Notes under the pieces: model-generated
What the model saw: the letters and a program-made list of their open reading frames with translations, nothing else
Database searches by the model: none
Told to the model about the DNA's origin: nothing
Part shown: positions 8,540-52,633 of the stretch, one piece after another
How the letters are laid out: every line of letters starts with the position of its first letter
Position numbering within the stretch: position 1 is the first letter of the stretch
NCBI GenBank assembly: GCA_045613125.1
Contig: JAZLAM010000020.1
Span: 4,782-68,781 of the forward strand
DNA length: 64,000 nt
Direction of reading: 5' to 3'
Source of the DNA: Alphaproteobacteria bacterium
GTDB taxonomy: Bacteria; Pseudomonadota; Alphaproteobacteria; RF32; CAG-239
Translations under genes and position numbers: made by a program

Positions 8540-11500
8540 ATGGCAAAAATTAAAACTTTTGCAGCCGTTGTTTTATGTGCTGTAATGTTCATTTCCTCTT
8601 CATGTGAGGAACAAATGGAATCAACCTATGTAGGTTTTTCTGAAGGAATTAAAAGTACAAATATGAAGTACGAAAGTATGGAATATATTGTAAAGTTTGA
8701 CACGATAGTGAATGAATTATTCACTGTTGAGCAGAATGTACTAGGAGACATCGTAGAGTATGAAAACGATCAAGCAATTGACGTAAGTAGTTTTTTCTAT
8801 GAGTTAGATCTTAACGTTAAATTTAACGTTGAACCACAGCAGGTTTATGTTCTAAAAAAGGAACAACTGAGTTCTGTTGCGATGACATCGTCAAATGTAG
8901 CAGATAAAGTTGTTAAAGACAGTACGGAAGATGATTTCACCCTTACTTCGGTTGGATGTGAATATGAGTTTGTTTTTAACGAGGGCGAAAAAGTTGTAGC
9001 AAAAAGTGTATATGAGAAAGTTTCTCATATGGACACAACTTTTTCATATGCTGAAATCAGTCGGGTATCGTATAAGAAAAGCGATAGTAAACTGGATGAG
9101 GTAAAGACAAATGAGGATTCGATCGTGCATGATGTAAATTTCTATTTTGATGTAGAAATGATTATCAAGCGAGATACCGATGAAACAAGGACGTATGTGG
9201 TAAGAGTACCTGTGGAAAGAATTTACATGGAAGAGCTGGCAGAAGCTGTAACTGAGATTAAGGATTTGGAGTATAAGGGAAAATTTGCCGTAAGGGAAAG
9301 CGAACTTTATACAGTTGAACAATATGATTTAGGTTATTATGTGACGACATTGAAGGACAAAGAAGTTACCCGTAAGATGTTCAAATATGATCTGGATTTG
9401 AATGTTAAGTTCGATATCAATCCTAAAAAAGTGACAGTTGATAGTCCAAACAAATTAACGGATGTTGCGCTTAAGAGTGCGACGGCAGGAGATGAAGTTA
9501 AGCAAGAAATTAACCAAGATGAGTTCACCAAAGCTACAGTTGAACGTGACTATGAGTTTGTGTTCAATGAAGGTGAGGTTGTAACGGCAAAATCTTTATA
9601 TCAATATCTTTATAACAAAGATATGACATTTGCATATGCTGAGATTAGAAGTGTAACATATAAGAGATATGATACAAGTCCTAATCCTAACTCAAGCGAA
9701 GATGTAAAGATTTATGATATCGACCTTTATTTTGAGGTTGATATTGAGGGTAAGGAAGGTGCTAATATTGACGGAAAATATGAAGTAGTAGTTTCATATC
9801 AACGTGTATACGAGGTACCTGATACCCCCGTTTCTGAGACGGTGATAGAGAACGTAGAATATGTGGGTCAATTTGATACCATAACCAAAAAACTCTTTAC
9901 CGTAAGACAAGAAGTCAATGGTGATTTTGTAACCTACACTCAAAATAATGAAGAAATATCAAAAGAGCATTTTGAGAGAAAATTAAATCTTGAGGCAATT
10001 TTTGATATTCCTGCTGTTGTTTACGTAAATAGCGAACAAGAACTTGCAGATGTCAGTTTGACCAGCAGCTCAAAGGATGGCAACAAGGAAACAAAGTCAA
10101 GTTCGGATGGCTTTACCACTATAACTCGTTCGCAAAATTATAACTTTAAGTTTAATTGCAATGAGAATGTGGTTTCAGCAACTGAATATGACCGAGAAAC
10201 CTATGGTGATACATTGTTGATTTATTCTTCAATTGATAATATTACATACAAAAATTGTAATGTTGAAAAGAACGAAGCAAAATCTAATGTTGATTCAACC
10301 GTATATGATGTTATGCTTTACTTTAATGTAAATGTAAAACGTCATGTCAAAACAACATCTAAAACCCATCTTGTTGCTGTTCCTTATGCTCGTGTTTTGA
10401 AACATGTAGCAAAAGATACTCTTGTAAAGAAAAATTATCGTGATGTAAGAAGAAAAATTCTTTCAAGCACTACGGAATTAGTTTCTTTTACTGAGTATGA
10501 AATTTGGAGTGTTTCAGGCGAGAAAAATGCTAAGACAATCTCTAAAGTTTTGAACTTTGGTTTTACTAATCCATCAAATCAGACAGTTTATACAACCAAT
10601 ACTAACTATAAGACAATGTCTAATGGTTCTGTAGAGGGAAAAGAAACTTCAAGCAAGGATGGAAATTGGACGGTTTATACTCAAACTAACAATTATTCAT
10701 CAACAGCTGACAATGGAAATAAGTCCTTTAACAATAAGTATTCATATAATAGCCAAAAAGCTATTTATACAAATGAACACTATACTGTTGAATTTGCTTA
10801 TGGCAATTGGTCTGTAAACGAAGGTTCAAGTAATGTCGGTTCTAAGAATGGTGAAACAACATATAATGGTAATGCATACGAAGTTTATCCATATGTAAAC
10901 AACGTATCTTACACTTATGATGTTGAAGATGATTCTTATAGTGGTAATGGACAGTCAAATGTGAATGTTTGCATTGAAAAACCGGAAGAAGATATTCTTG
11001 TAGCTATCAATTATCGTGATGTAAGAAGAGAAATTCTTTCAAGCACTACGGAATTAGTTTCTTTTACTGAGTATGAAATTTGGAGTGTTTCAGGAGCGAA
11101 AAACGCTAAGACAATCTCTAAAGTTTTGAACTTTGGTTTTAATAATCCTTCATCACAGACAGTTTATACAACCAATACTAACTATAAGACAATGTCTAAT
11201 GGTTCTGTAGAGGGAAAAGAAACTTCAAGCAAGGATGGAAATTGGACAGTTTATACTCAAACTAACAATTATTCATCAACTGCTGACAATGGAAATAAGT
11301 CATTTAACAATAAGTATTCATATAATAGTCAAAAAGCTATTTATACAAATGAACACTACACTGTTGAATTTGACTATGGAAGTTGGTCTGTAAGCGAGGG
11401 TTCAAGCAATGTCGGTTCTAAGAATGGTGAAACAACATATAATGGTAATGTATACGAAGTTTATCCATATGTAAACAACGTATCTTACACTTATGATGTT

Positions 11501-12019
11501 GAAGATGATTCTTATAGTGGTAATGGACAGTCAAATGTGAATGTTTGCATTGAAAAGGAAGTCGGTTCTATTATTCCTGAAGAATGGGGTAAAATTATCG
11601 GCGCAGGTATTTCAGCTGTTCCGGCAGATGATGTAAATGGTACTTATGCTAAAAAGTGCTTGTGTATCAGGACTGAAAACGGAGCTGTTTCTGTTGTTTT
11701 TGACATGAACTCTACTGTTCCTACTGTAGAACAAATTCTGGGAGGTAACTTTGTAGTAGGTGATTATGATGCAACATACAACAGTGGTGTGTATACTAAT
11801 GGTGAATGGGAGCCAGCAATTGCTAAGGATTTGAGTGATCGTATTGCATATTATCAAGGTGAAACTTGTATGCGTAATATTCGTCACACTACTTTGCAAC
11901 GTTGGAATTGGAGAAATGGTAATATGTCAACAGTTGTTGATGGTTATGTATTCTCAGTTTCCAACAATGGAACCATTACAATTATGTATAATGGACAATC
12001 TGTTATGCAAATGCGTTAA
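8540..12019 (+). CDS. large repetitive surface lipoprotein (1159 aa), Asn/Tyr/Ser/Thr-rich, internal repeats
   Basis: Signal peptide with lipobox-like FISSSC. Three divergent ~200-aa repeats, each containing motifs such as EYEFVFNEGE..VAKS.Y and FYFDVE. Then two ~97% identical 192-aa repeats and a unique ~150-aa C-terminal domain. No known catalytic motif. Confidence 0.6.
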   Translation: MAKIKTFAAVVLCAVMFISSSCEEQMESTYVGFSEGIKSTNMKYESMEYIVKFDTIVNELFTVEQNVLGDIVEYENDQAIDVSSFFYELDLNVKFNVEPQQVYVLKKEQLSSVAMTSSNVADKVVKDSTEDDFTLTSVGCEYEFVFNEGEKVVAKSVYEKVSHMDTTFSYAEISRVSYKKSDSKLDEVKTNEDSIVHDVNFYFDVEMIIKRDTDETRTYVVRVPVERIYMEELAEAVTEIKDLEYKGKFAVRESELYTVEQYDLGYYVTTLKDKEVTRKMFKYDLDLNVKFDINPKKVTVDSPNKLTDVALKSATAGDEVKQEINQDEFTKATVERDYEFVFNEGEVVTAKSLYQYLYNKDMTFAYAEIRSVTYKRYDTSPNPNSSEDVKIYDIDLYFEVDIEGKEGANIDGKYEVVVSYQRVYEVPDTPVSETVIENVEYVGQFDTITKKLFTVRQEVNGDFVTYTQNNEEISKEHFERKLNLEAIFDIPAVVYVNSEQELADVSLTSSSKDGNKETKSSSDGFTTITRSQNYNFKFNCNENVVSATEYDRETYGDTLLIYSSIDNITYKNCNVEKNEAKSNVDSTVYDVMLYFNVNVKRHVKTTSKTHLVAVPYARVLKHVAKDTLVKKNYRDVRRKILSSTTELVSFTEYEIWSVSGEKNAKTISKVLNFGFTNPSNQTVYTTNTNYKTMSNGSVEGKETSSKDGNWTVYTQTNNYSSTADNGNKSFNNKYSYNSQKAIYTNEHYTVEFAYGNWSVNEGSSNVGSKNGETTYNGNAYEVYPYVNNVSYTYDVEDDSYSGNGQSNVNVCIEKPEEDILVAINYRDVRREILSSTTELVSFTEYEIWSVSGAKNAKTISKVLNFGFNNPSSQTVYTTNTNYKTMSNGSVEGKETSSKDGNWTVYTQTNNYSSTADNGNKSFNNKYSYNSQKAIYTNEHYTVEFDYGSWSVSEGSSNVGSKNGETTYNGNVYEVYPYVNNVSYTYDVEDDSYSGNGQSNVNVCIEKEVGSIIPEEWGKIIGAGISAVPADDVNGTYAKKCLCIRTENGAVSVVFDMNSTVPTVEQILGGNFVVGDYDATYNSGVYTNGEWEPAIAKDLSDRIAYYQGETCMRNIRHTTLQRWNWRNGNMSTVVDGYVFSVSNNGTITIMYNGQSVMQMR
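10415..11566 (+). repeat. near-perfect tandem duplication, 2 x 576 bp (192 aa), inside the lipoprotein CDS
   Basis: aattatcgtgatgtaagaaga... at 10433 recurs at 11009 (offset 576 bp). Only scattered substitutions (e.g. K/E, E/A, T/N, A/D, N/S, A/V at protein level). Confidence 0.85.
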
Positions 12020-13024: not shown

Positions 13025-14269
13025 TTAGAATTTATAATTAAGTGATAAACCAAACAACTGAACAGAGTTAGAAAAATCTACTGAAGTTCTTGATGTGTCA
13101 TTTGGTGTAATATTTTGTGTATTCATATGCGCTTTGTGAGCATAAATATAAGTATAAGACAAATCAAAACTCAATTTTTCGTTGTATTGATAGTTAAGAC
13201 CTGTAGAATACCATAAGCGGTCAGAGTCCGGAATACGAGGAGTTCTGTGTTTTAAGCGAGCAGCAGCTTGATCATAAGCCAAACCTAAACGCCATTTCCA
13301 TTGATTATCAATTTGATAACTTGCACCAACGGCAAAGAAGTTTGTATCACGCCATTTTTCTTTAACTTGAGAAACTTGAGATTTTGTATCTTCTCCCATA
13401 ATCGTCAAGTAATCAAAAGAACTCCAAAATACACGTTGATATTCTGCCATAACAGCCCATTTTTCACTTACTTGGTGGAAAATGCCAATTGAAGCCATTG
13501 CAGGAGTTGTTAAGTGGGCACTGATATCTTGATTAAGCAAAATGCTAGGTGCTGAAGATTCAATTTCACCTTTTAATTTATGCTTAACTTCACTTCTGTA
13601 CCCCAAACCGATACGAGTATTATCGTTAAATTCATACAAAGCACCTAATTGATAACCGATATCAAATGTGTCACCTTCTAAACGAGTATGATATGTTCCA
13701 TATACAGTATTCGTTAATTTTGCTTTCATATATTGTAATTGAGCGCCAGCCCCTATTGATAATTTATCAGTTGCTTTATATGCAAGAATCGGAGTAACCG
13801 TAACGGAGGTAACTTTTGAAGTGATACCATGGTCAGAACCTGCCCAATTTTTATCATATTTTGTTACCATACCATAAGGAACGTTCATTGTAACACCTAA
13901 AAATGTTTTTTCATCAATCTGATGTGAAAAAGCCATATTAGGAGCAACTGCAGCATGCACAATGTTGTTTATATCAGAATCTCTATGTGTTTCACCACTG
14001 TTGTCTATATATTTAACATTTTCAGCTCTTGCTTTTGGAGCAATGTATGTCCCGCCAATGTTAAATTGAGTTCCGCTTTGTCTTGTTAAACCAGCTGCGT
14101 TAAAATAAGCATAAGAATTGTTTTCGGCACCTGCTGTTGCACCTGCAAAAGCGTTACCTTGAGCTGCGGCTGACTGTTCACGTAAATGGAAACCAGCAGC
14201 ATTTGCATTGGCAGCTAATAAAACAGTTCCCAATGCTGTTAAAGTCAAAAATTTATTCATATTATTCAT
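13025..14269 (-). CDS. fadL: outer-membrane long-chain fatty acid/hydrophobic compound transporter, FadL/OmpP1/TodX family
   Basis: Signal peptide ...ANANA followed by AGFHLREQSAAAQGNAFAGATAG N-terminal hatch motif. Beta-barrel-like alternating pattern and terminal aromatic residue (…NYKF). Confidence 0.8.
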   Translation of the reverse strand: MNNMNKFLTLTALGTVLLAANANAAGFHLREQSAAAQGNAFAGATAGAENNSYAYFNAAGLTRQSGTQFNIGGTYIAPKARAENVKYIDNSGETHRDSDINNIVHAAVAPNMAFSHQIDEKTFLGVTMNVPYGMVTKYDKNWAGSDHGITSKVTSVTVTPILAYKATDKLSIGAGAQLQYMKAKLTNTVYGTYHTRLEGDTFDIGYQLGALYEFNDNTRIGLGYRSEVKHKLKGEIESSAPSILLNQDISAHLTTPAMASIGIFHQVSEKWAVMAEYQRVFWSSFDYLTIMGEDTKSQVSQVKEKWRDTNFFAVGASYQIDNQWKWRLGLAYDQAAARLKHRTPRIPDSDRLWYSTGLNYQYNEKLSFDLSYTYIYAHKAHMNTQNITPNDTSRTSVDFSNSVQLFGLSLNYKF

Positions 14270-16769: not shown

Positions 16770-16797
16770 TGATGTTCTCAATCGTAATAAAGCACCT

Positions 16798-16827
16798 CTT
16801 TAAAGGTGCTTTATTTTTAGGTGGAAT
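16798..16827 (+). terminator. rho-independent terminator after aas
   Basis: aaagcacct ... aggtgcttt stem followed by T-run. Confidence 0.6.
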
Positions 16828-16856: not shown

Positions 16857-16885
16857 ATTGCAAAACAGCTTTTTTTGTACTATAA
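16857..16885 (+). promoter_or_regulatory. near-consensus sigma70 promoter (TTGCAA, 17 bp spacer, TATAAT) for the Cys-rich protein gene
   Basis: Hexamers and spacing read directly from the sequence; ATG lies about 40 nt downstream. Confidence 0.5.
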
Positions 16886-16925
16886 TACTTAATAAGTTAG
16901 TTAAAATTGCACAAAGGGTGTACCT

Positions 16926-17474
16926 ATGAAATTGTTTGTTGCGCTATTTTTATTTATACTTCCGATAACAGCTAATGCTTCTAATTGCAAGGTGGGGTGT
17001 GTGGATATGCCCACGTGTGAAGATTTGGGATATTCTAAAACTATACGTTGTGGTAATGGTAGTGATGTTGTTTTATGCCCGTTTGATTCTTCATATAAAT
17101 GGTGCAAACAATATTCTTGTGAAGATGGTAAATATCGTTCATCTGCTCCTACTGGAGAGGAGGGGTGGAATTGTCCTGAGGTGAGTTATAATGGTTTAAA
17201 ATGTTATAATTGTTCATGTAAGCCTTCTGATGATTGTATATATAATAGCCAAAATAGAGGATCAGGAACTTTAAGTAATAGATGCTGTAATGGTAACTAT
17301 AAAAAATGTATAACTAATTGCCCAGGTAATGAAAAGTATCCAAAGAATTCTACACCGACTTATTCGGCCTGTTTAGATTGTGGCAAGACAATTATGTATA
17401 TAAGTGGTTTTACATGTAATGAAGGTTACGTAAAAAGTGATAATGGTGAGAGATGTGTAAACAAGCCATACTAA
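16926..17474 (+). CDS. secreted cysteine-rich protein (20 Cys in ~160 mature residues), EGF-like/knottin-like spacing, function unknown
   Basis: Signal peptide MKLFVALFLFILPITANA. Cys motifs such as CNEGYVKSDNGERC and CYNCSC. No enzymatic motif. Confidence 0.55.
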   Translation: MKLFVALFLFILPITANASNCKVGCVDMPTCEDLGYSKTIRCGNGSDVVLCPFDSSYKWCKQYSCEDGKYRSSAPTGEEGWNCPEVSYNGLKCYNCSCKPSDDCIYNSQNRGSGTLSNRCCNGNYKKCITNCPGNEKYPKNSTPTYSACLDCGKTIMYISGFTCNEGYVKSDNGERCVNKPY

Positions 17475-18380: not shown

Positions 18381-20078
18381 ATGTCAAAAGTACTTATTAC
18401 ATCAGCTTTGCCATATATTAACGGAGTTCCTCATTTAGGACACATGGTTGGTTGTTTGCTTCCTTCTGATGTGTATGCCAGATATATGCGCATGATGGGT
18501 AATGATGTTTTATATATTGTTGGCACAGACGAACACGGAACAACTTCTGAAGTTGGAGCTATTAAAGCCGGTTTAAGTGTACAAGAATATTGCGATTTAT
18601 TTCATGCAAAACATTATAATGCATATAAAAATTTTAACCTTTCGTTTGATTGTTTTGGTAGAACTTCTTCTGAACAGAACAAAGAAATTGTATACCATAT
18701 TTTTGAACAGCTTGATAAAAATGGTTTTATAGAAGAAAGAACAATCAAACAAGTTTATTCTATTGATGATAAAATGTTTTTGGCCGATAGATATATTACC
18801 GGAACATGTCCGTATTGTGGATATGATAAAGCCAGAGGTGATCAGTGTGAGAACTGTACAAAAGTTTTGGAACCGACAGATTTAATTGAAGCAAAAAGCA
18901 CAATTTCAGGAAGTTCTAATTTGGAAGTTCGTGAGACAAAGCACCTTTTCCTCAGTTTACCTAAAATTGAACCTATTCTTAAGGAATGGCTAAAAACAAA
19001 AGAAGCTTTTTGGCCGGAAGTCGCTTATTCTATTGCCCAAAAGTGGCTTAAAGAAGGTTTGCAGGCTCGTTGCATTACACGTGATTTGAAGTGGGGATTT
19101 CCTGTAAATAAAGAAGGATTTGAAGATAAGGTTTTCTATGTTTGGTTTGATGCTCCTATAGGTTATATCGGTATTACTAAACAATGGTCTGATGAAAAAC
19201 CAGATGAACGTAATTGGAAAGATTGGTGGTATGACGCTAAAGATGTACGTCATATTGAATTTATGGCAAAAGATAATGTGCCGTATCATTCGATTACATT
19301 TCCAGCGACACTTTTAGGCACAAAAGAACCTTGGACACAAGTTGATTATTTAAAAGGTGTTAGCTATTTAACTTTTGAAGGCGGTAAATTTTCAAAATCA
19401 GAGAATAGAGGTGTCTTTGCTGAAGATGCAATTAAAGAATTTGAGGCTGATTATTGGCGCTATTGGTTAATGAGCAATATTCCGGAAAGTTCCGACACAA
19501 GTTTTACATTTGATTTATTTGCCTCTGTGATAAATAAAGATTTAAATGGAGTGTTAGGTAATTTTGTATCAAGAGTTTTAAAAATGACATCCTCAAAAAT
19601 TGGAAATGTAGTACCGGATGGTGGGGAATTTGGAGAGCTTGAATATAAATTGATAGAGAATTTACAGACAAGAGTTAATGATTATTTCAAATATTTTAAT
19701 GAATTAGAGTTTCGTAAAGCGTTTGCAGAACTGCGTGCAATTTGGGTTGAAGGAAATAATTATATATCGGAAGCAGAGCCTTGGACAGTTATAAAAGAAG
19801 ATAAAAATAAAGCTTCTATGGTTTTAAGAACCTGTATTAATCTTATTCGTATTTTTGCAATTTTAAGTGCACCCATTATGCCCAAAACTTCTGAAAATAT
19901 GCTTGCAAAACTTAATTTAAGCGTTGATACATTGGGATTATTAAAAGATTTTGATATTAAAAAAGAAATTATCTCTATCAAGGCTGGTGCAGAATTTGTA
20001 GTCGGAGATATGTTATTTGAGCGTATTACTCCAGAACGTGTTGAAGAGCTAAAATCTAAATATGGGAGTTCAAAATAA
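18381..20078 (+). CDS. metG: methionine--tRNA ligase (short form, no C-terminal EMAPII/tRNA-binding domain)
   Basis: HIGH-type motif PYINGVPHLGHM, KMSKS-type KFSKS, and zinc knuckle CPYCGY...CENC. Confidence 0.95.
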   Translation: MSKVLITSALPYINGVPHLGHMVGCLLPSDVYARYMRMMGNDVLYIVGTDEHGTTSEVGAIKAGLSVQEYCDLFHAKHYNAYKNFNLSFDCFGRTSSEQNKEIVYHIFEQLDKNGFIEERTIKQVYSIDDKMFLADRYITGTCPYCGYDKARGDQCENCTKVLEPTDLIEAKSTISGSSNLEVRETKHLFLSLPKIEPILKEWLKTKEAFWPEVAYSIAQKWLKEGLQARCITRDLKWGFPVNKEGFEDKVFYVWFDAPIGYIGITKQWSDEKPDERNWKDWWYDAKDVRHIEFMAKDNVPYHSITFPATLLGTKEPWTQVDYLKGVSYLTFEGGKFSKSENRGVFAEDAIKEFEADYWRYWLMSNIPESSDTSFTFDLFASVINKDLNGVLGNFVSRVLKMTSSKIGNVVPDGGEFGELEYKLIENLQTRVNDYFKYFNELEFRKAFAELRAIWVEGNNYISEAEPWTVIKEDKNKASMVLRTCINLIRIFAILSAPIMPKTSENMLAKLNLSVDTLGLLKDFDIKKEIISIKAGAEFVVGDMLFERITPERVEELKSKYGSSK

Positions 20079-21046
20079 TGAAAATTGAGAGTTTAAAAGG
20101 TTTACGTTTACGAGGAATGGGGAAATTTATACATAATTTTTTTATGTTTTTGACATACCCGTTTAGACATGCTTTTAATTTTTTTGGTTTATTGTTGGTT
20201 GGTATTGTGATTTTTGCTGCAATTCCTATGTCACAAGGTATAAGCTACAAGCATGTATTGGATTGGTATTTATTTAGATATAATCAAATAGAAACAAAAG
20301 TGAACTTTAGAAAAATAGAAAAACCAGAAGCAGTGGAAAGACAAGTTAAAAAAGAGTTTAGAAAAGAATTTAAGTTTAAAGAAACAGCGGCTCCTGACAG
20401 GAAGCATATATCTGCGGAATTGAAGAAAAAAATGGAAACAGATATGTCTGATGATATAGAGGCTAAAACGAGCAAAAGAAAAATATTAAAAATTAAAAAT
20501 TTACCATTTAGACGTGCTAATATTAATAACCGAGCAAATATAGATACGGCAAAAAAATCTTTAGATGGTATACAACAAGAAGAGGTTTTATCAAAAAATA
20601 TTAATAGTGCAGATGAAAAACAATCTGTATTATTAACACAATCGCTACAAGTAAAAACATCTCCTGTGATACCGCATAAGGAAGAAGTTGTTGTAGCCAT
20701 GCCTGAAATAAAAAATGAAATTTCTTATCGTAAAATAGAAGCATTACCGCTGATTTATAAAGATGTTACGGAATATATTGAAGGTTTAGCTTTAGTGTTT
20801 GGAGCCAACGATTTATCTGTGGGCGATAAGTATGTTATTTTATATGGAATATATACGGATAAACATAGATATGATGTAGAAAAAGCAACTATTTATTTAC
20901 AAGAATTGGTTGATAAGAAAAAAGTAGAATGTGAAATTGTTGCTTACACATATGATAATTATCCTACAGCGATTTGCTTTTTAGATGGAAAAAGTATAAA
21001 CCAACATTTAGTAGATGCCGGTTTTGCTGATAATGTTGCTTTATAG
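20078..21046 (+). CDS. membrane-anchored Lys-rich protein with C-terminal SNase-like (thermonuclease-fold) domain, probably catalytically degenerate
   Basis: Start overlaps the metG stop (TAATG). One TM segment, then a charged linker. C-terminal end matches the SNase family (KKVECEIVAYTYDNYPTAICFLDGKSINQHLVDAGFA versus V.CE...DRYGR.LA.C..G.DLN..LV..GWA). Canonical Ca/catalytic residues appear substituted (GIYTDK in place of GIDAPE). Confidence 0.4.
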   Translation: MKIESLKGLRLRGMGKFIHNFFMFLTYPFRHAFNFFGLLLVGIVIFAAIPMSQGISYKHVLDWYLFRYNQIETKVNFRKIEKPEAVERQVKKEFRKEFKFKETAAPDRKHISAELKKKMETDMSDDIEAKTSKRKILKIKNLPFRRANINNRANIDTAKKSLDGIQQEEVLSKNINSADEKQSVLLTQSLQVKTSPVIPHKEEVVVAMPEIKNEISYRKIEALPLIYKDVTEYIEGLALVFGANDLSVGDKYVILYGIYTDKHRYDVEKATIYLQELVDKKKVECEIVAYTYDNYPTAICFLDGKSINQHLVDAGFADNVAL

Positions 21047-21056
21047 GAAATAATAT

Positions 21057-22499
21057 ATGTGGCAACCAGTACTTATGATTAATGGATTTATACTTTCAAT
21101 TTTGGGAGTAAGTATGATATGTCCGGCTATTGTTGATATATATGATAATAATACTAACTGGTCTCCTTTTATTACATCTATGTTAGTAACTATGTTTATA
21201 GGTTTATCTTTGTTTTTATCTAATAGAGTTAAGATTGCAAATATAAGTTTAAGACAAGGATATCTAGTAACAGCAACTTGCTGGATTTCTGTTTCGTTGT
21301 TTGCATCCATTCCTTTTGTTATAAGTGGCTCAATAGTTGATATTGCATCGGCAATTTTTGAAAGTGTTTCAGGTGTTACCGGTACAGGTGCAACTATTTT
21401 AACTGATATAGAAGCAGAACCTCGTTCTATTTTGTTATGGCGCTCTATGTTAAATGGGTTAGGTGGTATCGGTATTGTGATTTTTGCTATTGCAATGCTT
21501 CCTTTTTTGGGAGTTGGCGGAATGCAAATTTTTGCTCGTGAAAATGCTAACGCTAATGATAAACTTATGCCTAAATTTATAGATATGGCAAAATGGATTA
21601 TGCTGGTTTACATAGGATTAGTGGTTTTATGCATGTTACTACTTTATTTTTGTGGAATGGGAAAATTTGATGCATTAAATCATGCTATATCAGCTGTTGC
21701 TACAGCCGGATTTTCCACAAAGAATAATTCGATAGCATATTTTAACAATAAGATTATCGAGTTGGTTTTGGCCACGTTTATGTTATTGGGTGCTTTACCA
21801 ATGACGTTTTATATTATGTTACTAAAAAAGAAAGAGTTAGATCCGTTTCATATAGGACAAATAAAGTATTTTTTAAAAACTATTATTACTTTATCTTTTT
21901 TTGTAGCTCTTTGGCTAAGTATTCAAAGTAATATGAACTTTTTTACAGCTTTACGTTATAGTACATTTAATATTATATCTGTTATAACGACAACAGGAAT
22001 GGGGTCAACAGATTTCCTAGATTGGGGAATTTGGACTGCTGTATTTTTTACGCTTTTATCTATGCATGGTGGATGTATAGGATCTACAACAGGTTCGATT
22101 AAAGTAATGCGATGGCAGGTGTTGAAGTCATATTTTCATAAGATGCTAATCTCAGCAATTGAGCCCAATAGAGTGGTGCCTATTAAAGTAGGGGAAGTTT
22201 CTGTAAGTGAGAGTGTGATAAGTTCTGTATTTTTATATGTGTTTTTATTTATTATTTCTATTGCTGGAACTGCCGTAATATTAAATTTTATAGGGTATGA
22301 TTTTACAACATCGGTGTCTGCTGCCATTGCAAGTGTAACAAATACGGGGCCGGGAATAACTACATCAATAGGTGTTATGGGGAATTATGCATTTTTTAGT
22401 ACAACAGCAAAATATATATTATGCTTTGCTATGATTTTGGGAAGATTAGAAATTATTACGATTTTGGTAGCATTCACCAAAGCTTTTTGGAAAAAATAA
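21057..22499 (+). CDS. trkH: TrkH/KtrB-family potassium uptake protein
   Basis: Four MPM repeats with selectivity-filter-like glycines (SGVTGTGATIL, TTTGMGSTD); about 480 aa. Confidence 0.8.
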   Translation: MWQPVLMINGFILSILGVSMICPAIVDIYDNNTNWSPFITSMLVTMFIGLSLFLSNRVKIANISLRQGYLVTATCWISVSLFASIPFVISGSIVDIASAIFESVSGVTGTGATILTDIEAEPRSILLWRSMLNGLGGIGIVIFAIAMLPFLGVGGMQIFARENANANDKLMPKFIDMAKWIMLVYIGLVVLCMLLLYFCGMGKFDALNHAISAVATAGFSTKNNSIAYFNNKIIELVLATFMLLGALPMTFYIMLLKKKELDPFHIGQIKYFLKTIITLSFFVALWLSIQSNMNFFTALRYSTFNIISVITTTGMGSTDFLDWGIWTAVFFTLLSMHGGCIGSTTGSIKVMRWQVLKSYFHKMLISAIEPNRVVPIKVGEVSVSESVISSVFLYVFLFIISIAGTAVILNFIGYDFTTSVSAAIASVTNTGPGITTSIGVMGNYAFFSTTAKYILCFAMILGRLEIITILVAFTKAFWKK

Positions 22500-46100: not shown

Positions 46101-47372
46101 ATGGCTTTGTATCGAAAAATAGCAATCATAATAATGAGTTTGTTTATGTTTTTTTCAAACAGTGTAAAAGCTGTTGAATATACTCCTAAAGAGTGGTTAG
46201 ATTGGCTTGATAATTTAAAAAAAGAAATGATTTCAAAAGGAATAAGTGAAAAAACTATTCAAAAAGCTTATAGTAATAAGACATATTATCATAAAACACC
46301 TGAAGTTGTTCAAAAAGATAAAGAACAGACGGAATTTGTTTTGACTTCAAGAGATTATGTAAATAAGTTAGTAAATGAAAAAAGAGTTGATATTGCTCGT
46401 AAGCATTATAAAAAATTACAAAAAAAATATCAAAAAATAGAAGAACAATATGGAGTGCCACTTAATTATTTGACTGCTTTTTGGGCAATTGAGACTAATT
46501 TTGGGCAAAATAAGGGAAAATATCATATAATTGACGGTTTAACAAATTTGAGCTACAAAAACCGACGTTCCAAATTTTTTAAAAATGAACTTTATAATGT
46601 CTTAAAAATTATGGAAAAGTTTGAACTTGAAAACGATAAAATGATGGGATCTTGGGCTGGTGCTATGGGGCATTTTCAATTTATGCCTTCTACGTATAAT
46701 GTTTATGCTATAGACTACGATAACGATGGCATAATTGATATTTGGGATTCTTTTGATGATGCTGTTGCATCGGCAGCAAATTATCTTAGCCATCTAGGGT
46801 GGAAAAAAGATGAACCTTGGGGAATGAAAATAAGCTTACCTTGGAATTTCGATTATACTCAAATCGGATATAAAAAGGTTAAAACTCTTGAAGATTGGGC
46901 AAAAATAGGAATTAGAAAAACAGATGGTAAAAAAATAGATTTGAATTCTGACTTGAAGGCATCGATTATACTTCCTGATGGAAAAAAAGGAAATGCTTAT
47001 ATTATACTTTCTAATTTCAAAAGGATTATGATTTGGAATCGATCTGAAAACTATGCTTTGGCTGTGGCAAGATTGGCAGATTATATTAAAAATTCCCAAA
47101 AATATACTCCTATAAGTTCTGATAGACAATATTTGTTAACTGATAAAGATGTTAAAAAAGTTCAGCGATTTGCAAATAAATTGTTGCGAACAAAATTAAA
47201 AGTAGATGGAATTTTAGGTCCTAAAACTAGAGATGCTGTAAAAATTTTGCAAAAAAAGGCAAAAATGCAACAAGATGGATATCCTGATTATCAATTATTG
47301 CTAAAAATTGATAACTATAATCCTAAAATGGGGTTTATGGTGCCTGTTCAACCTATAAAATCGGTAAAGTAA
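46101..47372 (+). CDS. lytic murein transglycosylase (MltB/SLT_2 family) with C-terminal PG_binding_1 domain
   Basis: Signal peptide; SLT_2-like core; C-terminal LLRTKLKVDGILGPKTRDAVKILQKK peptidoglycan-binding repeat. Confidence 0.75.
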   Translation: MALYRKIAIIIMSLFMFFSNSVKAVEYTPKEWLDWLDNLKKEMISKGISEKTIQKAYSNKTYYHKTPEVVQKDKEQTEFVLTSRDYVNKLVNEKRVDIARKHYKKLQKKYQKIEEQYGVPLNYLTAFWAIETNFGQNKGKYHIIDGLTNLSYKNRRSKFFKNELYNVLKIMEKFELENDKMMGSWAGAMGHFQFMPSTYNVYAIDYDNDGIIDIWDSFDDAVASAANYLSHLGWKKDEPWGMKISLPWNFDYTQIGYKKVKTLEDWAKIGIRKTDGKKIDLNSDLKASIILPDGKKGNAYIILSNFKRIMIWNRSENYALAVARLADYIKNSQKYTPISSDRQYLLTDKDVKKVQRFANKLLRTKLKVDGILGPKTRDAVKILQKKAKMQQDGYPDYQLLLKIDNYNPKMGFMVPVQPIKSVK

Positions 47373-48194
47373 ATGAAAGTGACTAAATTTAAAATATTAT
47401 CTCTGTTGATGATTGCTTTTTTATATGGATGTGCTTCAAAAGGTACCCCAGAATTAAGTGGCTTATCACCGCAAGCTCAGGCAATAGCAATTAAAAACTA
47501 TGGTGGTGTTTATAAAGTTGGCAATCCCTATAAAATTATGGGAAGATGGTATTACCCGAAAGAAGATTATTCTTATTCAGAAGTAGGAATAGCCAGTTGG
47601 TATGGAGAAGATTTTCATGCAAAAAAAACAGCCAATGGTGAAGTTTATGATATGAATACTTTGACTGCAGCACACAGAACTCTTCCATTACCGTCTATAG
47701 TTAAGGTTACAAATTTGGAAAACGGACGATCATTGGTGTTACGAGTTAATGATAGAGGTCCGTATGCAAAAGAACGTATAATTGATATTTCAAAACGAGG
47801 GGCGCAACTTTTAGGATATCAAACTAAAGGAATAACAAAGGTAAAAGTTGAAATTATGGCTGAAGAAAGTAAGGCTCTAAAAGCAGCAATGCTGGGACAA
47901 AAAACTTCTAATATTTCGAGGATACCTGTGATAAAAATATCAAGTTCTGATGAAAATAGTTCTAATACAATATATTATGTTCAAGTAGGGTCTTTTTCAC
48001 AAAAAAAATTAGCAGATAATTTAAATTCTAGACTTTGTCAATTCGGTAAAAGCGAAGTAAAAGAAATTTACTTAGGTGGCGCAACTTTTTATAGAGTAAG
48101 GATAGGGCCGTTTTCATATAAAGAAGATGCCGATATTATGTTAAATAAGGTTAGAGATTATGGTATTTATGATGCCAGAGTTGTTAAAAATTAA
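47373..48194 (+). CDS. rlpA: septal ring lytic transglycosylase RlpA (DPBB domain + C-terminal SPOR domain) lipoprotein
   Basis: Lipobox FLYGC. DPBB motifs (ASWYGEDFHAKKTANGEVYD...TAAHRTLPLPS...VRVNDRGP). SPOR-like tail (YYVQVGSF...YRVRIGPF). Confidence 0.85.
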   Translation: MKVTKFKILSLLMIAFLYGCASKGTPELSGLSPQAQAIAIKNYGGVYKVGNPYKIMGRWYYPKEDYSYSEVGIASWYGEDFHAKKTANGEVYDMNTLTAAHRTLPLPSIVKVTNLENGRSLVLRVNDRGPYAKERIIDISKRGAQLLGYQTKGITKVKVEIMAEESKALKAAMLGQKTSNISRIPVIKISSSDENSSNTIYYVQVGSFSQKKLADNLNSRLCQFGKSEVKEIYLGGATFYRVRIGPFSYKEDADIMLNKVRDYGIYDARVVKN

Positions 48195-48207
48195 AGGAGA
48201 TTGTTTG

Positions 48208-49353
48208 ATGAAAAATAAATATAAATTGTTGGCTTATACTTTTTTATGTAGTTTGATTTCTACAGAAGTTCTTTCTTTTGAAACATCAGCTAAAAATGCT
48301 ATATTGATGGATTATGATACAGGGGCATACATATATACAAAAAATCATGATGTAAAGGTAGCTCCGGCATCTATGAGCAAATTGATGACAATTTATGTTG
48401 TTTTTGATAAAATAAAAAGCGGGTTACTTTCTTTAGATGATGTTTTTACTGTCAGCGAAAATGCTTGGCGTAAAGGAGGAGCAGCAAGTGGTAGTTCAAC
48501 AATGTTTTTAAAAATAGGTGAAAAAGTAACTGTTGAAGATTTACTCAAAGGTATCATTATTCAATCGGGTAATGATGCTTGCATAGTTATGGCTGAAAAT
48601 ATTGCCGGTTCTGAAGAAAATTTTACTGTTTTGATGAATGAAATGGCTGAAAAAATAGGATTAAAAAATAGTAGTTTTGCGAATTCTACAGGGTGGCCTC
48701 ATCCGGATCATAAAATGTCAGTTGAAGACTTAGCTAAACTTTCAAAATTATTAATTAAAGATTTCAATGAATATTATCATTTATTTTCACAAAAAGAGTT
48801 TACACATAACAATATTAAACAATCTAACAGAAATCCGTTATTGTACAGTATGGAAGCTGCTGATGGTTTGAAAACCGGGCATACAGATGAGGCAGGATTT
48901 TGTCTTAGTGCATCGGCATATAAAAATGGTCGTCGTTTAATTGGAGTGATGAGTGGTATGGCAAGTAATAAAGAACGCTCTGAAGAAACGGAAAAGCTTA
49001 TGAACTATGGCTTTCGAGAGTTTGATAATTATAAAATAGTTAATAAAAATGATGTAATGGCAACAGCAAATGTTTGGTATGGACAAAGTAAAACAATTGA
49101 TTTGGTTGTACCGTATGATATAACAGAAACAATTAAGAGAAATTTACGCGATAAGTATGAACTAAAAGCTCGTTACAAAGAACCTGTTAAAGCTCCGATA
49201 AGAAAAGGAGATACTGTTGGAAAAATTATTTTAGTAGATGCTGAGGGTGTAGAAAAAGAATTTCCTCTAGTTGCAAAAGATAATGTTGAACAAATTGGAG
49301 TATTTCAAAAATTTGTTGCTAATTTAAAATATTTAGTATTGGGAAATAAATAA
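48208..49353 (+). CDS. dacA: D-alanyl-D-alanine carboxypeptidase (PBP5/6 family, S11 peptidase)
   Basis: SxxK (SMSKLMT), SGN (IQSGND) and KTG (KTGHT) motifs. Start set at 48208 with aaggag SD. Confidence 0.85.
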   Translation: MKNKYKLLAYTFLCSLISTEVLSFETSAKNAILMDYDTGAYIYTKNHDVKVAPASMSKLMTIYVVFDKIKSGLLSLDDVFTVSENAWRKGGAASGSSTMFLKIGEKVTVEDLLKGIIIQSGNDACIVMAENIAGSEENFTVLMNEMAEKIGLKNSSFANSTGWPHPDHKMSVEDLAKLSKLLIKDFNEYYHLFSQKEFTHNNIKQSNRNPLLYSMEAADGLKTGHTDEAGFCLSASAYKNGRRLIGVMSGMASNKERSEETEKLMNYGFREFDNYKIVNKNDVMATANVWYGQSKTIDLVVPYDITETIKRNLRDKYELKARYKEPVKAPIRKGDTVGKIILVDAEGVEKEFPLVAKDNVEQIGVFQKFVANLKYLVLGNK

Positions 49354-49997
49354 TGTTAGGTAAATTTATCACATTCGAAGGTGGAGAAGGTACAGGAAAA
49401 TCAACCCAAATCAAGTTACTATCTGATTTTCTTAAACTAAAAAATAAAGATGTAATTTTAACCAAAGAACCGGGAGGAACCGATATAGGGTTGGAATTGA
49501 GGCGTATTTTAATTGAAGGAGAAGTAAGCAAACTTGATGCAGAGGCAGAGGCTTTGTTGTTTTTTGCGGATAGACGCATACATATGGTGAAAAAAGTTTG
49601 GCCGGCTATTAACAATGGAAATTGGGTGCTAAGTGACAGATTTGCAGATTCTACTATGGCTTATCAATATTATGCCTATGATAAAAGATTATCAAAAGAA
49701 GATATAAATATGTTATATTCTTTTGCTGTCGGAAATTTTAAGCCTGATTTAACAATAGTGTTGGATATTGATCCTAAAATAGGTTTAGCCAGATCGTTTA
49801 AAAAGGCCGAAACCATGCTTAATAAAGAAACAAGAAATGAAAACAGAGAACTTATTTGGCATGAAAATTTAAGAAAAGGGTATTTAGAAATAGCAAAAGC
49901 TGAACCTGAAAGATGTGTTGTTTTAGATGCAAATAAAAGTATTGAAGATTTGCATTCTGATGTTGTAAAAGCAGTTGCTGACAGATTTGGATTATAA
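49353..49997 (+). CDS. tmk: thymidylate kinase
   Basis: P-loop FITFEGGEGTGKSTQ and the DRF/LID region. Confidence 0.9.
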   Translation: MLGKFITFEGGEGTGKSTQIKLLSDFLKLKNKDVILTKEPGGTDIGLELRRILIEGEVSKLDAEAEALLFFADRRIHMVKKVWPAINNGNWVLSDRFADSTMAYQYYAYDKRLSKEDINMLYSFAVGNFKPDLTIVLDIDPKIGLARSFKKAETMLNKETRNENRELIWHENLRKGYLEIAKAEPERCVVLDANKSIEDLHSDVVKAVADRFGL

Positions 49998-50000
49998 CAT

Positions 50001-51044
50001 ATGGAAAATATTTCACCTAATCAAAATTCTTATCTTTTAGGTCATGATGATGCACTTGATAAATTTTTAAATGCGTTTAAACAAGGTACACTTCATAACT
50101 CATGGCTTATAAGCGGCCCTCAAGGTGTAGGAAAAGCAACTTTTGCCTATAAAATAGCTCGGTTTTTGTTAGCATCAAAAGATGACAAAGTAACTGAATA
50201 TACATCAATTCATATAACGGAAAATCATCCTGTTTTTAAATTAGTATCATCAAATTCACACCCGGATTTAAAAGTTCTTGAGCGAGATTTTATAGAAACT
50301 GACAAGAAAAAGATTATAAAAGCAATAAAAGATGGGGAGCCTCTTGATGAGTCAGAACTTAAAAATTTAAAAAAATCAGCTGTAATTCGAATTGATGATA
50401 TAAGAAGTGTTAATGATTTTTTGAATAAAAAGTCGTTTGATGGTAATTGGCGTGTTGTAATTATTGATTGTGCCGATGATATGAACGCAAATTCTGCCAA
50501 TGGGTTATTAAAAGTGTTGGAAGAACCTCCTGCAAAAAGTGTTTTACTTCTGATTTCTCATAATCCAAATAAATTGTTGCCGACTATAAAATCAAGGTGT
50601 GCGAAAATTAATCTTTCGCCTTTAAATGCAAATATAGTATCATCTCTGTTACGCCGTTATCGTCCGAATTTGTCAGAAGTTGAGATCGAAAAATTATCAC
50701 AAATTTGTTCCGGAAGTATCGGAAAAGCGATAAATTATGCAGATAATAACGGATTGATGTTATACCAAATGCTGGAAAACTTGTTTTTTGCCGGAAAAGA
50801 TTTTGATGTTGTAAAAGCAATTGAATTGGCAACTATGGTATCAAAAGATGAAAACGTTTGGGATTTATTGCAAGAATTGGTTACAAAGTTTATTTCAGAT
50901 ATGATGTTGGGTGGTGAACATGTTGAAGAATTAGGACAAGCATGGGATAAAGTAAGAGTTATTTTTGCAGATACAATAAATCTGAATATGGATAAAAAGC
51001 AAGCCATGATAAATATAATCAATACAATATGTAAGGCTATATAG
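50001..51044 (+). CDS. holB: DNA polymerase III subunit delta'
   Basis: AAA+ Walker-A-like GPQGVGKATFAYKIARFLL; tmk-holB-tatD synteny. Confidence 0.85.
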   Translation: MENISPNQNSYLLGHDDALDKFLNAFKQGTLHNSWLISGPQGVGKATFAYKIARFLLASKDDKVTEYTSIHITENHPVFKLVSSNSHPDLKVLERDFIETDKKKIIKAIKDGEPLDESELKNLKKSAVIRIDDIRSVNDFLNKKSFDGNWRVVIIDCADDMNANSANGLLKVLEEPPAKSVLLLISHNPNKLLPTIKSRCAKINLSPLNANIVSSLLRRYRPNLSEVEIEKLSQICSGSIGKAINYADNNGLMLYQMLENLFFAGKDFDVVKAIELATMVSKDENVWDLLQELVTKFISDMMLGGEHVEELGQAWDKVRVIFADTINLNMDKKQAMINIINTICKAI

Positions 51045-51830
51045 ATGTTGATAGATAGTCATTGTCATTTAAATTCAGTTGATAATTTAGAGGAAATAGT
51101 TAAACGAGCGAAAGAAAACGGCGTTGATGTCATGCTCAATGCCGGAGGAAAGTTTGATGAACTGAAACAAAGCTTGAATATATGTCAACAATTTAAAAAT
51201 ATCTACACTGTTAGTGGTGTGCATCCTCATGATGCAAAAGATTATGAAAATATTAAGGCTGAAGATGTTTTAAACAATCTAGTACATGATAAAGTTGTGG
51301 CAATTGGTGAGTGTGGGCTTGATTATTATTATGATTTTAGTCCTAAAGAGGTACAAAGAAAAGTTTTGAAAGAAATGATAAAAGCCGCACAAGAAAGTAA
51401 TTTACCGATAATTATTCATAACAGACAATCAGATGATGATATGATAGAGATTTTAACAACTTCATATAAACAAAAGCCGTTTAGCGGTGTTATTCATTGC
51501 TTTTCTTCATCTTGGAGTTTGGCAAAAGTAGCTCTTGATATAGGTTTTTATATATCAGCTTCAGGAATTATAACGTTTAATTCAGCTTCAGACATTAGGG
51601 ATTGTTTTATTAAGGTTCCTCTGGATAGGTTATTAATAGAAACAGATACGCCATATTTAGCTCCTGTTCCCAAAAGAGGAAAAGTAAATGAACCAGCACA
51701 TATTGTATATACAGCAAAATGTTTAGCACAGATAAAAGATGTTGATTTTAATATAATATCAGATATAACGACATCAAACTTTTTTAATTTATTCAAAAAA
51801 ACAAATAAGAAGGGTCTGTCAAATGAATAA
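51045..51830 (+). CDS. tatD: TatD-family metal-dependent deoxyribonuclease/hydrolase
   Basis: DSHCHL start and the HxH...H...E...H...D TIM-barrel metal ligands. Confidence 0.85.
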   Translation: MLIDSHCHLNSVDNLEEIVKRAKENGVDVMLNAGGKFDELKQSLNICQQFKNIYTVSGVHPHDAKDYENIKAEDVLNNLVHDKVVAIGECGLDYYYDFSPKEVQRKVLKEMIKAAQESNLPIIIHNRQSDDDMIEILTTSYKQKPFSGVIHCFSSSWSLAKVALDIGFYISASGIITFNSASDIRDCFIKVPLDRLLIETDTPYLAPVPKRGKVNEPAHIVYTAKCLAQIKDVDFNIISDITTSNFFNLFKKTNKKGLSNE

Positions 51831-52617
51831 ACTTGTTATATTAGGTAGTGGTGCGGCTCCGGGTGTCCCATCCTTGACATCAGGTTGGGGTGCTTGCAAT
51901 CCTAATAATCCTAAAAACAGACGCAGACGTACAAGTGTATATGTTGAAATTGAAGGTGTTAAGTTTTTGATTGATACGTCACCAGATATTCATTGGCAAC
52001 TGTTGGACAATAATATCAGACATGTTGATGCTGTTTTGTACACACATTCGCATGCAGATCATTTGCACGGAATTGACGATTTAAGAGATTTAAACCGAAT
52101 ATCAAAACAATCAATAGAAGTATATTCTAATTTTGATACAATAGAGGTTATAAAAAATAGATTTCCATATTTGGTAACAGATAAGAACACACCTAATAAT
52201 CCATTATATAAAGCAAGTCTATCGCTTAATGTCGTTGAATTTACAAAGCCGTTTTATGTGAAAGGTGTTAAGATTGTTCCGATAAAATTATCAGGTCATC
52301 CGGTTACTACAAACGGATATATATTTAATGATAATGAACTTGTATATATTGCTGATTGTTTACAAATTGAAGATACAAGCTTGCGTTTGATAGAAAAAAA
52401 TCCTAAATTAATGGTAATGCCACTTACGATTATACAATCTAAATGGGAAAAACCTTATCATATGGGACTTGAAAAGTTATTAGAATATGTTAATATCATC
52501 GAACCTTGTAAGATGGTTATAAATCATATGGCTGTAGAATGTGATTATGATAATGTAAATAACTTAACACCTGAAAATGTTTTACCAGCCTATGATAATA
52601 TGGTAGTAGAGTTTTAA
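51823..52617 (+). CDS. MBL-fold metallo-hydrolase (PhnP/GPP-like)
   Basis: HSHADHLHG metallo-beta-lactamase motif; overlaps the tatD end by 8 nt (operon). Confidence 0.75.
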   Translation: MNKLVILGSGAAPGVPSLTSGWGACNPNNPKNRRRRTSVYVEIEGVKFLIDTSPDIHWQLLDNNIRHVDAVLYTHSHADHLHGIDDLRDLNRISKQSIEVYSNFDTIEVIKNRFPYLVTDKNTPNNPLYKASLSLNVVEFTKPFYVKGVKIVPIKLSGHPVTTNGYIFNDNELVYIADCLQIEDTSLRLIEKNPKLMVMPLTIIQSKWEKPYHMGLEKLLEYVNIIEPCKMVINHMAVECDYDNVNNLTPENVLPAYDNMVVEF

Positions 52618-52633
52618 TTAAAAGGAAATAAAG

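Follow-up and report, generated by a model that had tools for sequence, protein, structure and literature searches.

A short gene in the 64,000-nucleotide (nt) stretch analyzed here (Alphaproteobacteria bacterium, GenBank assembly GCA_045613125.1, contig JAZLAM010000020.1, positions 4,782 to 68,781; hereafter the window) encodes a protein of 182 amino acids (aa) with 20 cysteines. Its sequence indicates that it is the shortest form, consisting of a signal peptide, an N-domain, and one C-module, of an undescribed modular family. We interpret this protein as a Sec-exported, disulfide-stabilized, and externally exposed minimal member of a new family of modular surface proteins under diversifying selection, and we give this interpretation a probability of about 50%.

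Export signal and cysteine content

The original prediction, made from the sequence alone, had described a small Sec-exported protein with 20 cysteines in C.C, CC, and C.NG....C spacings, and the open reading frame (ORF), the cysteine count, and the leader bear this out. As read from the sequence, the leader has an n/h/c layout with an AXA site and no lipobox, and the signal peptide is probably cleaved. Nearly every family member begins with a comparable hydrophobic leader. Lipoprotein status was rejected, as the corresponding residues (ASN before C) do not form a lipobox and the pattern F-[AS]-[AS]-C is found in only a few homologs.

All 20 cysteines lie in the mature part, beyond residue 20 (positions 21, 25, 31, 42, 51, 60, 65, 83, 93, 96, 98, 104, 120, 121, 128, 132, 149, 152, 164, and 177), and they include C-x-C at 96/98, CC at 120/121, C-NG-x4-C at 121 to 128, and two CxxC motifs at 93 to 96 and 149 to 152. 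At 11.0%, the cysteine share is the highest among the ORFs of the window; the next richest (6.3%) is an overlapping and probably spurious ORF, and ORFs of 200 aa or longer have a median share of 1.15%. This content is not due to chance, since the cysteines are kept across homologs. The protein terminates in ...CVNKPY and has no hydrophobic tail. The GC content of the gene (34.4%, versus 32.8% for the window) is native and gives no sign of a eukaryotic acquisition.

Two undescribed domains in a modular family

Relatives were collected with an exhaustive phmmer search against 1.84 billion representatives at an E value of ≤1e-3, which returned 111 clusters, 49 of them at E ≤ 1e-10; a word-indexed search returned four relatives only. 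None of the relatives bears a protein name. One candidate, P0053 (2,316 aa), was rejected as a low-complexity false positive.

The N-domain (residues 19 to 95) was matched by phmmer in 91 proteins, nearly always as a single copy right behind the signal peptide, and its invariant motifs are PTCxxLGY and CPFDSSYKWCKxYxC-DG-Y. In the 182-aa protein, both family motifs (PTCxxLGY and CPFDxxYxxC) likewise stand directly behind the leader. The C-module, with the consensus CYxCxC..C(K/Y)W..N.G..L..CCNGxY..C..C...P.NA...C..CG.T...F.C..GY...G..C, is present in 43 proteins in 1 to 14 copies each, and residues 93 to 182 fit this consensus, which was built from 76 module copies. Fourteen copies are found in the giant paralog P0005 (3,041 aa, 11.5% Cys) and 10 in P0006.

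What lies C-terminal to the N-domain varies across the family, ranging over Cys-rich arrays, Lcl_C/DUF1566 domains, and beta-helix-like repeats. The Lcl_C match was above the Pfam cutoff in P0055 (E = 1.8e-8) and below it in P0013 (8e-6) and P0009 (0.095). Long beta-helix-like repeat regions were found in L011, P0029, and P0064, and P0111 weakly matched an adhesive domain of the pectate-lyase-like type. Many family members are short forms of 150 to 200 aa that combine the N-domain with a single small Cys module. A separate case is P0084 (432 aa), which has two copies (residues 23 to 56 and 216 to 250) of a core of about 35 aa, C..LGY...C...CPFD..Y..C, each followed by a region that is not Cys-rich and has no Pfam match; this core may be an independent mini-domain.

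The 182-aa protein had no match to Pfam and NCBIfam profiles at E ≤ 10, nor any to PHROGs or PADLOC, and a set of 22 family members had none in NCBIfam. P0005, with its 14 modules, matched no Pfam family at E ≤ 0.1, and the whole-family profile matched no PDB sequence. Both domains are thus undescribed in Pfam (2025 copy), NCBIfam 20, the PDB, and the searchable literature; the literature on such proteins gave only background, on Lcl of Legionella and on reduced-genome gut Alphaproteobacteria.

Distribution in gut Alphaproteobacteria

A scan of 185,579 species genomes located 11 family loci, all of them in gut metagenome-assembled genomes (MAGs). The original guess of a host-associated organism is reasonable. 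Ten are labeled as uncultured Alphaproteobacteria, and several names indicate gut samples (roe-deer colon, human gut collections). The remaining locus, L007 (CAVBCV010000002.1), was binned as "Lachnospiraceae bacterium", and carries a family gene very similar to those in the Alphaproteobacteria MAGs; the label is probably a binning error, with horizontal transfer as a possible alternative. In public assemblies, the 182-aa protein was present in identical form (P0114) and as four allelic variants. Gut Alphaproteobacteria of the order Rs-D84 have been described as having reduced genomes and a possibly partner-dependent lifestyle (PMC12306168).

Family genes stand in tandem at L005 (8001-9317 and 12834-14585), L006 (3818-5947), L007 (7989-9341), and L009 (7932-9514). 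The adjacent paralogs each have their own leader and N-domain, but they differ in their Cys-rich C-terminal parts. The gene for P0005 (L020, 557-9682) lies upstream of an SLT_2/RlpA/PBP5/tmk/holB/TatD/Lactamase_B/DHHA1 block that corresponds, by gene order and lengths, to 46101-53527 of the window. A counterpart of P0005 was looked for at the window block, where a gene read from its translation as pyruvate phosphate dikinase (43081-45729) is found instead. Judged from these sequences, the giant gene is present in one relative and absent at the matching window position.

Paired cysteine loss points to disulfides

Among the 76 module copies, all 16 repeats without C132 also lacked C149 (18 repeats lacked C149), C98 and C121 were lost together in five repeats (total losses, six and five, respectively), and eight of the nine repeats without C120 also lacked C104. 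This paired loss therefore argues for disulfide partners (132-149, 98-121, and 104-120) rather than independent metal ligands, and we infer that disulfides form in the 182-aa protein as well. It has an even number of cysteines, and none of the 20 is missing from any allele or from the ortholog of the sister species L001, which is 53% identical.

The C-module profile had a single match among PDB sequences, the uS14 zinc ribbon, which was not significant (E = 0.088) and was rejected as a chance match, C149 being paired with C132. By the same token, the CxxC at 149 to 152 is not a zinc knuckle, because C149 is lost together with C132.

Predicted fold and the EGF question

AlphaFold2 models were made for the whole protein from a 22-sequence family alignment and for the C-module alone from 44 repeat copies. 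The predicted local distance difference test score (pLDDT) was 85.1 for the former, in which the mature part mostly exceeded 90 and residues 31 to 95 scored about 81 to 93, and 93.0 for the latter. Both models consist mostly of beta-hairpins; helix in the whole-protein model is limited to two stretches of 4 residues, and the rest is beta or coil. The models are confident and therefore point to real folded domains.

The original prediction had proposed a eukaryote-like module of the epidermal growth factor (EGF), knottin, or anaphylatoxin type. This proposal is not supported, and the likeness to EGF is limited to a terminal hairpin of about 20 residues, which resembles the C-terminal half of that domain. 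None of the EGF, TIL, knottin, and ANATO profiles of Pfam matched the query even at E ≤ 10; among the 22 family members searched, only cEGF appeared, in two of them and under the gathering score (best E = 0.022). Foldseek searches with the whole model and the C-module found nothing in the PDB at E ≤ 1e-3, and likewise nothing in BFVD. The best PDB matches were the four-EGF proteins Pfs25 and Pvs25 (E = 0.036 to 0.06; template modeling [TM] score, 0.13 to 0.16), and no knottin was among the matches. Over 17 to 24 residues, the C-terminal hairpin of factor Xa EGF2 could be overlaid with the terminal segment of about 20 residues, F-x-C-x2-G-Y-x8-C (root mean square deviation, 0.8 to 3.1 A; probability, 0.3 to 0.54).

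The repeat unit of about 85 aa with 10 cysteines also differs from EGF, which has about 30 to 40 aa and 6 cysteines. As far as loss patterns can tell, the pairs 98-121, 104-120, and 132-149 would fit neither the EGF (1-3, 2-4, 5-6) nor the knottin (1-4, 2-5, 3-6) connectivity. Over cysteines 96/98/104/120/121/128 they would correspond to 2-5 and 3-4, which, if correct, leaves no knot possible.

Rapid change outside the cysteines and motifs

Gene order is conserved between the window and the sister species L001, with Aas, HAD, and MetRS at 94%, 94%, and 97% identity, respectively, against 53% for the Cys-rich protein. Nonsynonymous divergence (dN) from L001 was 0.41 for the Cys-rich gene, 0.016 to 0.078 for the Pfam-annotated flanking genes, and 0.22 for an unannotated 322-aa ORF; the corresponding dN/dS ratios (omega; dS, synonymous divergence) were 0.36, 0.04 to 0.13, and 0.23. 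The L001 ortholog is 20 residues shorter and stops within the last hairpin. The 322-aa ORF, at 20078-21046 (+) in the metG-trkH interval, has no Pfam match, is 65.5% identical to its L001 counterpart, and is the second-fastest gene locally.

Within the species, six conspecific sequences (the window and five contigs) yielded five protein alleles. Relative to the window, nonsynonymous and synonymous changes stood at 4:0 in the Cys-rich gene and at 3:24 in Aas, HAD, and MetRS together (Fisher's P = 0.0011), and a comparison of L015 with L016 gave 8.5:0.5 against 5:16 in the flanks (Fisher's P = 0.0016). All eight amino acid polymorphisms fell into residues 82 to 137, three of the sites being tri-allelic (82, 111, and 131), and no Cys or motif residue was polymorphic. 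The counts are small; the pattern is one of a constant scaffold and N-terminal core with recurrently changing loops, as expected of diversifying selection on an exposed protein.

A second gene for an exposed protein showed comparable behavior. The FadL/TodX-type outer-membrane protein of the window (13025-14269, -) is about 86% identical to that of L015, compared to 99 to 100% for Aas, HAD, and MetRS, which may reflect either allelic replacement or diversification of this exposed protein under selection. Such divergence within the species suggests a pressure to vary on the exposed proteins of the organism.

Comparison with known systems

The 182-aa protein belongs to none of the known families tested, and it works most like stalk-and-head proteins such as Lcl. 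Lcl of Legionella is secreted by the type II secretion system (T2SS) and bound to the surface; its "lollipop" comprises a short N-region, a stalk, and, as the glycosaminoglycan-binding head, a DUF1566 domain (PMC11162425). The family shares with this Lcl/DUF1566 (Lcl_C, PF07603) design the Sec leader, the short constant N-region, the repetitive stalk, and the C-terminal head. However, the stalk of Lcl is a collagen triple helix and its N-region a helix, whereas the family has a disulfide-rich module of about 85 aa and a Cys-rich globule, respectively, and the C-terminal domain of Lcl has no disulfides, unlike the disulfide-rich modules of the family. The 182-aa protein itself has no Lcl_C head, which makes it a relative of Lcl_C-bearing proteins and not a member.

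EGF-like domains (EGF/hEGF/EGF_CA/cEGF, as in factor Xa EGF2 and Pfs25/Pvs25) resemble the C-module in being small, disulfide-stabilized beta-hairpin modules that can stand in tandem and are extracellular. The likeness is local, confined to the superposed C-x2-G-Y-x(n)-C terminal hairpin, and the C-module is twice as long, with 10 cysteines instead of 6, another inferred connectivity, and no significant match. ANATO (PF01821) is helical and TIL has a 10-Cys pattern; the model of the 182-aa protein is nearly all beta or coil, and the protein had no Pfam match to ANATO or TIL at E ≤ 10. Furin-like/R-spondin Fu and tumor necrosis factor receptor (TNFR)-type repeats are also elongated hairpin ladders pinned by disulfides, and R-spondin Fu1-Fu2 and the insulin-receptor CR region were among the weak Foldseek matches (E of at least 1; TM, about 0.2; no profile match); this likeness is a generic one.

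The variant-specific surface proteins (VSPs) of Giardia (PF03302) form the Cys-rich coat of a gut protist, with CXXC motifs, many paralogs of very different length, and fast divergence. As a purely functional comparison, the family resembles them in its cysteine content of about 11 to 12%, CXXC motifs, gut organism, many length-variable paralogs, and fast divergence, and it perhaps also works like such coats. The two differ in that neither the query nor P0005 had a VSP match, so that there is no sequence relation, in the lack of a C-terminal membrane anchor (the 182-aa protein ends in ...CVNKPY, whereas VSPs have a C-terminal transmembrane helix and a CRGKA tail), and in the organism being a bacterium. 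No evidence of VSP-style switching or mutually exclusive expression was found in the family.

Proposed function and alternatives

In the mechanism that we propose, the protein would be exported by Sec and fold oxidatively in the periplasm into two modules with about ten disulfide bonds, a step that is well supported. It would then be released to, or displayed on, the cell exterior, a location suggested by the architecture of the family, the example of Lcl, and the way in which the gene evolves. The constant N-domain would help to export the protein or to fix it to the bacterium's own envelope, and the C-module would be a rigid spacer, resistant to proteases, from which long stalks can be built by repetition. 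In larger relatives, heads at the far end (e.g., Lcl_C/DUF1566) would bind ligands in a stalk-and-head layout. The short form would expose only the C-module loops and the end of the N-domain, which change fast, as if seen by host immunity, phages, or partner cells, any of which could be the selective agent. The headless 182-aa form may act as a cap, as a bare stub on the surface, as a small binding protein in itself, or by competing for the docking site of the N-domain.

Several points weigh against this interpretation. Cleavage, disulfides, and extracellular location of the 182-aa protein are all deduced, and its disulfide map is only partly so. With nothing but a Sec leader, the protein would stay in the periplasm, and we found no T2SS, autotransporter, or other export genes linked to the family genes, nor a conserved partner gene beside them, the only recurring neighbor cluster being generic ABC ATPases. 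The 182-aa protein has no recognizable ligand-binding head, and the term "adhesin" fits its relatives instead. The within-species test rests on 4 to 9 substitutions, and the between-species omega of 0.36, being below 1, is compatible with relaxed constraint combined with a strong constraint on the cysteines.

Nevertheless, none of the rivals (a periplasmic protein, an EGF mimic, a remnant, or a toxin) fits the whole data set as well. A periplasmic resident without any exposure to the exterior, whether an envelope-associated structural protein or a buffer for redox state or metals, would agree with a Sec leader that has no linked secretion system, with the two CxxC motifs, and with the weak and nonsignificant zinc-ribbon likeness (uS14; E = 0.088). 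However, the paired loss favors disulfides, including that of C149 in the second CxxC with C132, and an identity of 53% beside neighbors at 94 to 97%, together with the nonsynonymous excess, would be unexpected for a periplasmic housekeeping protein. The adhesin-type heads of the relatives (Lcl_C and beta-helix-like repeats) would be sensible only outside the cell, and the distribution is narrow. We therefore consider a periplasmic role unlikely. As for the housekeeping periplasmic metal-binding family that would have contradicted the original prediction, the protein does not belong to one, considering the lack of Pfam, NCBIfam, and PDB-sequence matches, the 111 clusters only, the range limited to gut MAGs, and the paired Cys loss.

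Quite unlikely, too, is a decaying remnant, i.e., the N-terminal fragment of a once-larger family gene. The 182-aa protein does correspond to the N-terminal ~180 residues of P0005 and P0006, the giant paralogs; the L001 ortholog is shorter and ends in the last hairpin, and the evolutionary rate is high. Yet the ORF is intact in six conspecific sequences and in L001, every cysteine is kept despite 47% divergence, short forms of 150 to 200 aa are common in the family, omega (0.36) is well under 1, and the upstream -35 element, T-run, and Shine-Dalgarno-like site are kept.

A host-mimicking ligand or toxin of the EGF, knottin, or anaphylatoxin type, aimed at a eukaryotic receptor, would suit a secreted, Cys-rich protein of an organism from animal guts, and the terminal hairpin superposed on factor Xa EGF2 and the subthreshold cEGF matches in 2 of 22 members point the same way. 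Against this stand the lack of any such profile at E ≤ 10 or PDB fold at E ≤ 1e-3, the ~85-aa, 10-Cys unit with its deviating pairs, and the 14-fold repeat use in giant proteins, which looks structural and not ligand-like. The native GC content and the diversification of the family inside these bacteria (tandem paralogs and giant repeat proteins) also speak against mimicry, which we regard as very unlikely. The least probable reading by our estimate is a secreted antagonistic factor, bacteriocin- or defensin-like and aimed at competing microbes: the protein is small, secreted, disulfide-stabilized, and fast-evolving, but it is not obviously cationic or amphipathic, has no adjacent immunity, ABC-export, or processing genes (its neighbors being aas, a HAD hydrolase, and metG), shares its domains with multi-kilodalton repeat proteins and Lcl_C-headed proteins, and matched nothing in PADLOC or PHROGs.

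Implications

The two domains fold confidently in the models and are new: neither is represented in Pfam or NCBIfam, and neither sequence profiles nor Foldseek gave a PDB match. Judged by the relatives now available, the family is limited to uncultured gut Alphaproteobacteria, organisms that are barely known. It carries signatures of an interface with a host, partner, or phage: an export signal, stalk-and-head layouts, tandem paralogs, giant members, and nonsynonymous-biased change. To our knowledge, it is very unusual for a bacterial protein to contain more than 10% Cys and dozens to hundreds of disulfides. A coat rich in disulfides would withstand the proteases of the gut.

We tentatively raise a broader possibility, itself rather doubtful, that the family constitutes a lineage-specific, hyper-disulfide-bonded, variable surface system of reduced-genome gut Alphaproteobacteria, comparable in function to the variable, Cys-rich coats of gut protists. 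Within such a system, the N-domain would be an export or outer-membrane-anchor module, the C-module a new disulfide-ladder stalk fold extending to about 3,000 residues, the exchangeable heads would attach to host mucosa or partner cells, and the 182-aa protein would be a bare, immunodominant "stub". If surface-exposed, these proteins would offer a way into how such bacteria attach and persist, as well as gut-stable, disulfide-rich scaffolds and strain-level markers. If they are periplasmic, what remains is an unusual envelope protein specific to this lineage.

Flanking elements and genomic neighborhood

The coordinates of the gene, its predicted parts, and its flanking elements are given in Table 1.

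Table 1. Positions of the Cys-rich gene, its predicted parts, and nearby elements in the window
Feature	Position	Strand	Remarks
Coding sequence, 182-aa protein with 20 Cys	16926..17474	+	Stop codon included
Sec-type signal peptide, residues 1-18	16926..16979	+	MK, then LFVALFLFILPI, then TANA, with predicted cleavage before S; from sequence features
N-domain, residues 19-95	16980..17210	+	Cys 21/25/31/42/51/60/65/83/93
C-module, residues 93-182	17202..17471	+	Repeat unit of ~85 aa; repeats in paralogs, 10 Cys per unit
Variable stretch, residues 82-137	17169..17336	+	8/8 amino acid polymorphisms among 5 conspecific alleles
Promoter-like site, TTGCAA-17 nt-TATAAT	16858..16886	+	Intergenic, 39 nt 5' of ATG
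Shine-Dalgarno-like site, AAGGG	16914..16918	+	7 nt 5' of ATG; AAAGGG kept in L001
Hairpin with 9-bp stem, AAAGCACCT / AGGTGCTTT, 6-nt loop, then T-run	16789..16818	+	Read from sequence

The upstream site TTGCAA-17-TATAAT had been singled out as the best promoter in the window, a rank that does not hold: it matches the consensus at 10 of 12 positions, a score reached by 68 window sites, with 8 reaching 11/12, and the 24 promoter-like sites between 14 and 19 kb equal the shuffle expectation (24.7). In L001, the -35 element and the T-run are kept and the -10 element is not; the region upstream is near-identical in five conspecific contigs (158 to 159 of 159 nt). The site is plausible, from the sequence, as a putative promoter of the Cys-rich gene. 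The gene had also been credited with its own terminator. However, the scan gave no terminator-like site 3' of it on the + strand, and shuffled sequences fold as well as the 76-nt gap ahead of the convergent HAD gene (z = 0.65). The clear hairpin lies upstream; it is kept in L001, is missing from the list of the consensus terminator scan, and terminates the preceding aas-like gene, not the Cys-rich gene.

The neighbors are core chromosomal genes, namely those for a FadL-type outer-membrane channel, an aas-like protein (which reads as a bifunctional acyltransferase/acyl-ACP-synthetase-like gene), a HAD hydrolase (convergent), metG, and trkH; yajC-secDF, thyA/folA, and rpsI are more distant in the window. 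SecDF/YajC and the FadL-type barrel indicate a diderm organism with a Sec pathway. No mobile-element, phage, or defense context was detected around the gene (viral-contig scan, PADLOC, and PHROGs), no relatives were among the viral contigs scanned, and Rfam and tRNA scans gave no RNA genes in the window.

Three further observations concern other genes of the window. A 2,027-aa ORF (36763-42846, -) has a short M48 peptidase segment (residues 75 to 128) as its sole Pfam match, the other ~1,900 residues being without one. A 1,159-aa ORF (8540-12019, +) with a lipoprotein-like leader (...FISSSC) and no Pfam match has several internal repeats, including two near-identical units of about 190 aa close to the C terminus. 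Finally, trkH (21057-22499, +) has a dS of about 0.36 and 91% aa identity between conspecific contigs, compared to a dS of 0.015 to 0.04 for genes a few kilobases away, which suggests the boundary of a recombination tract between the 322-aa ORF and trkH.

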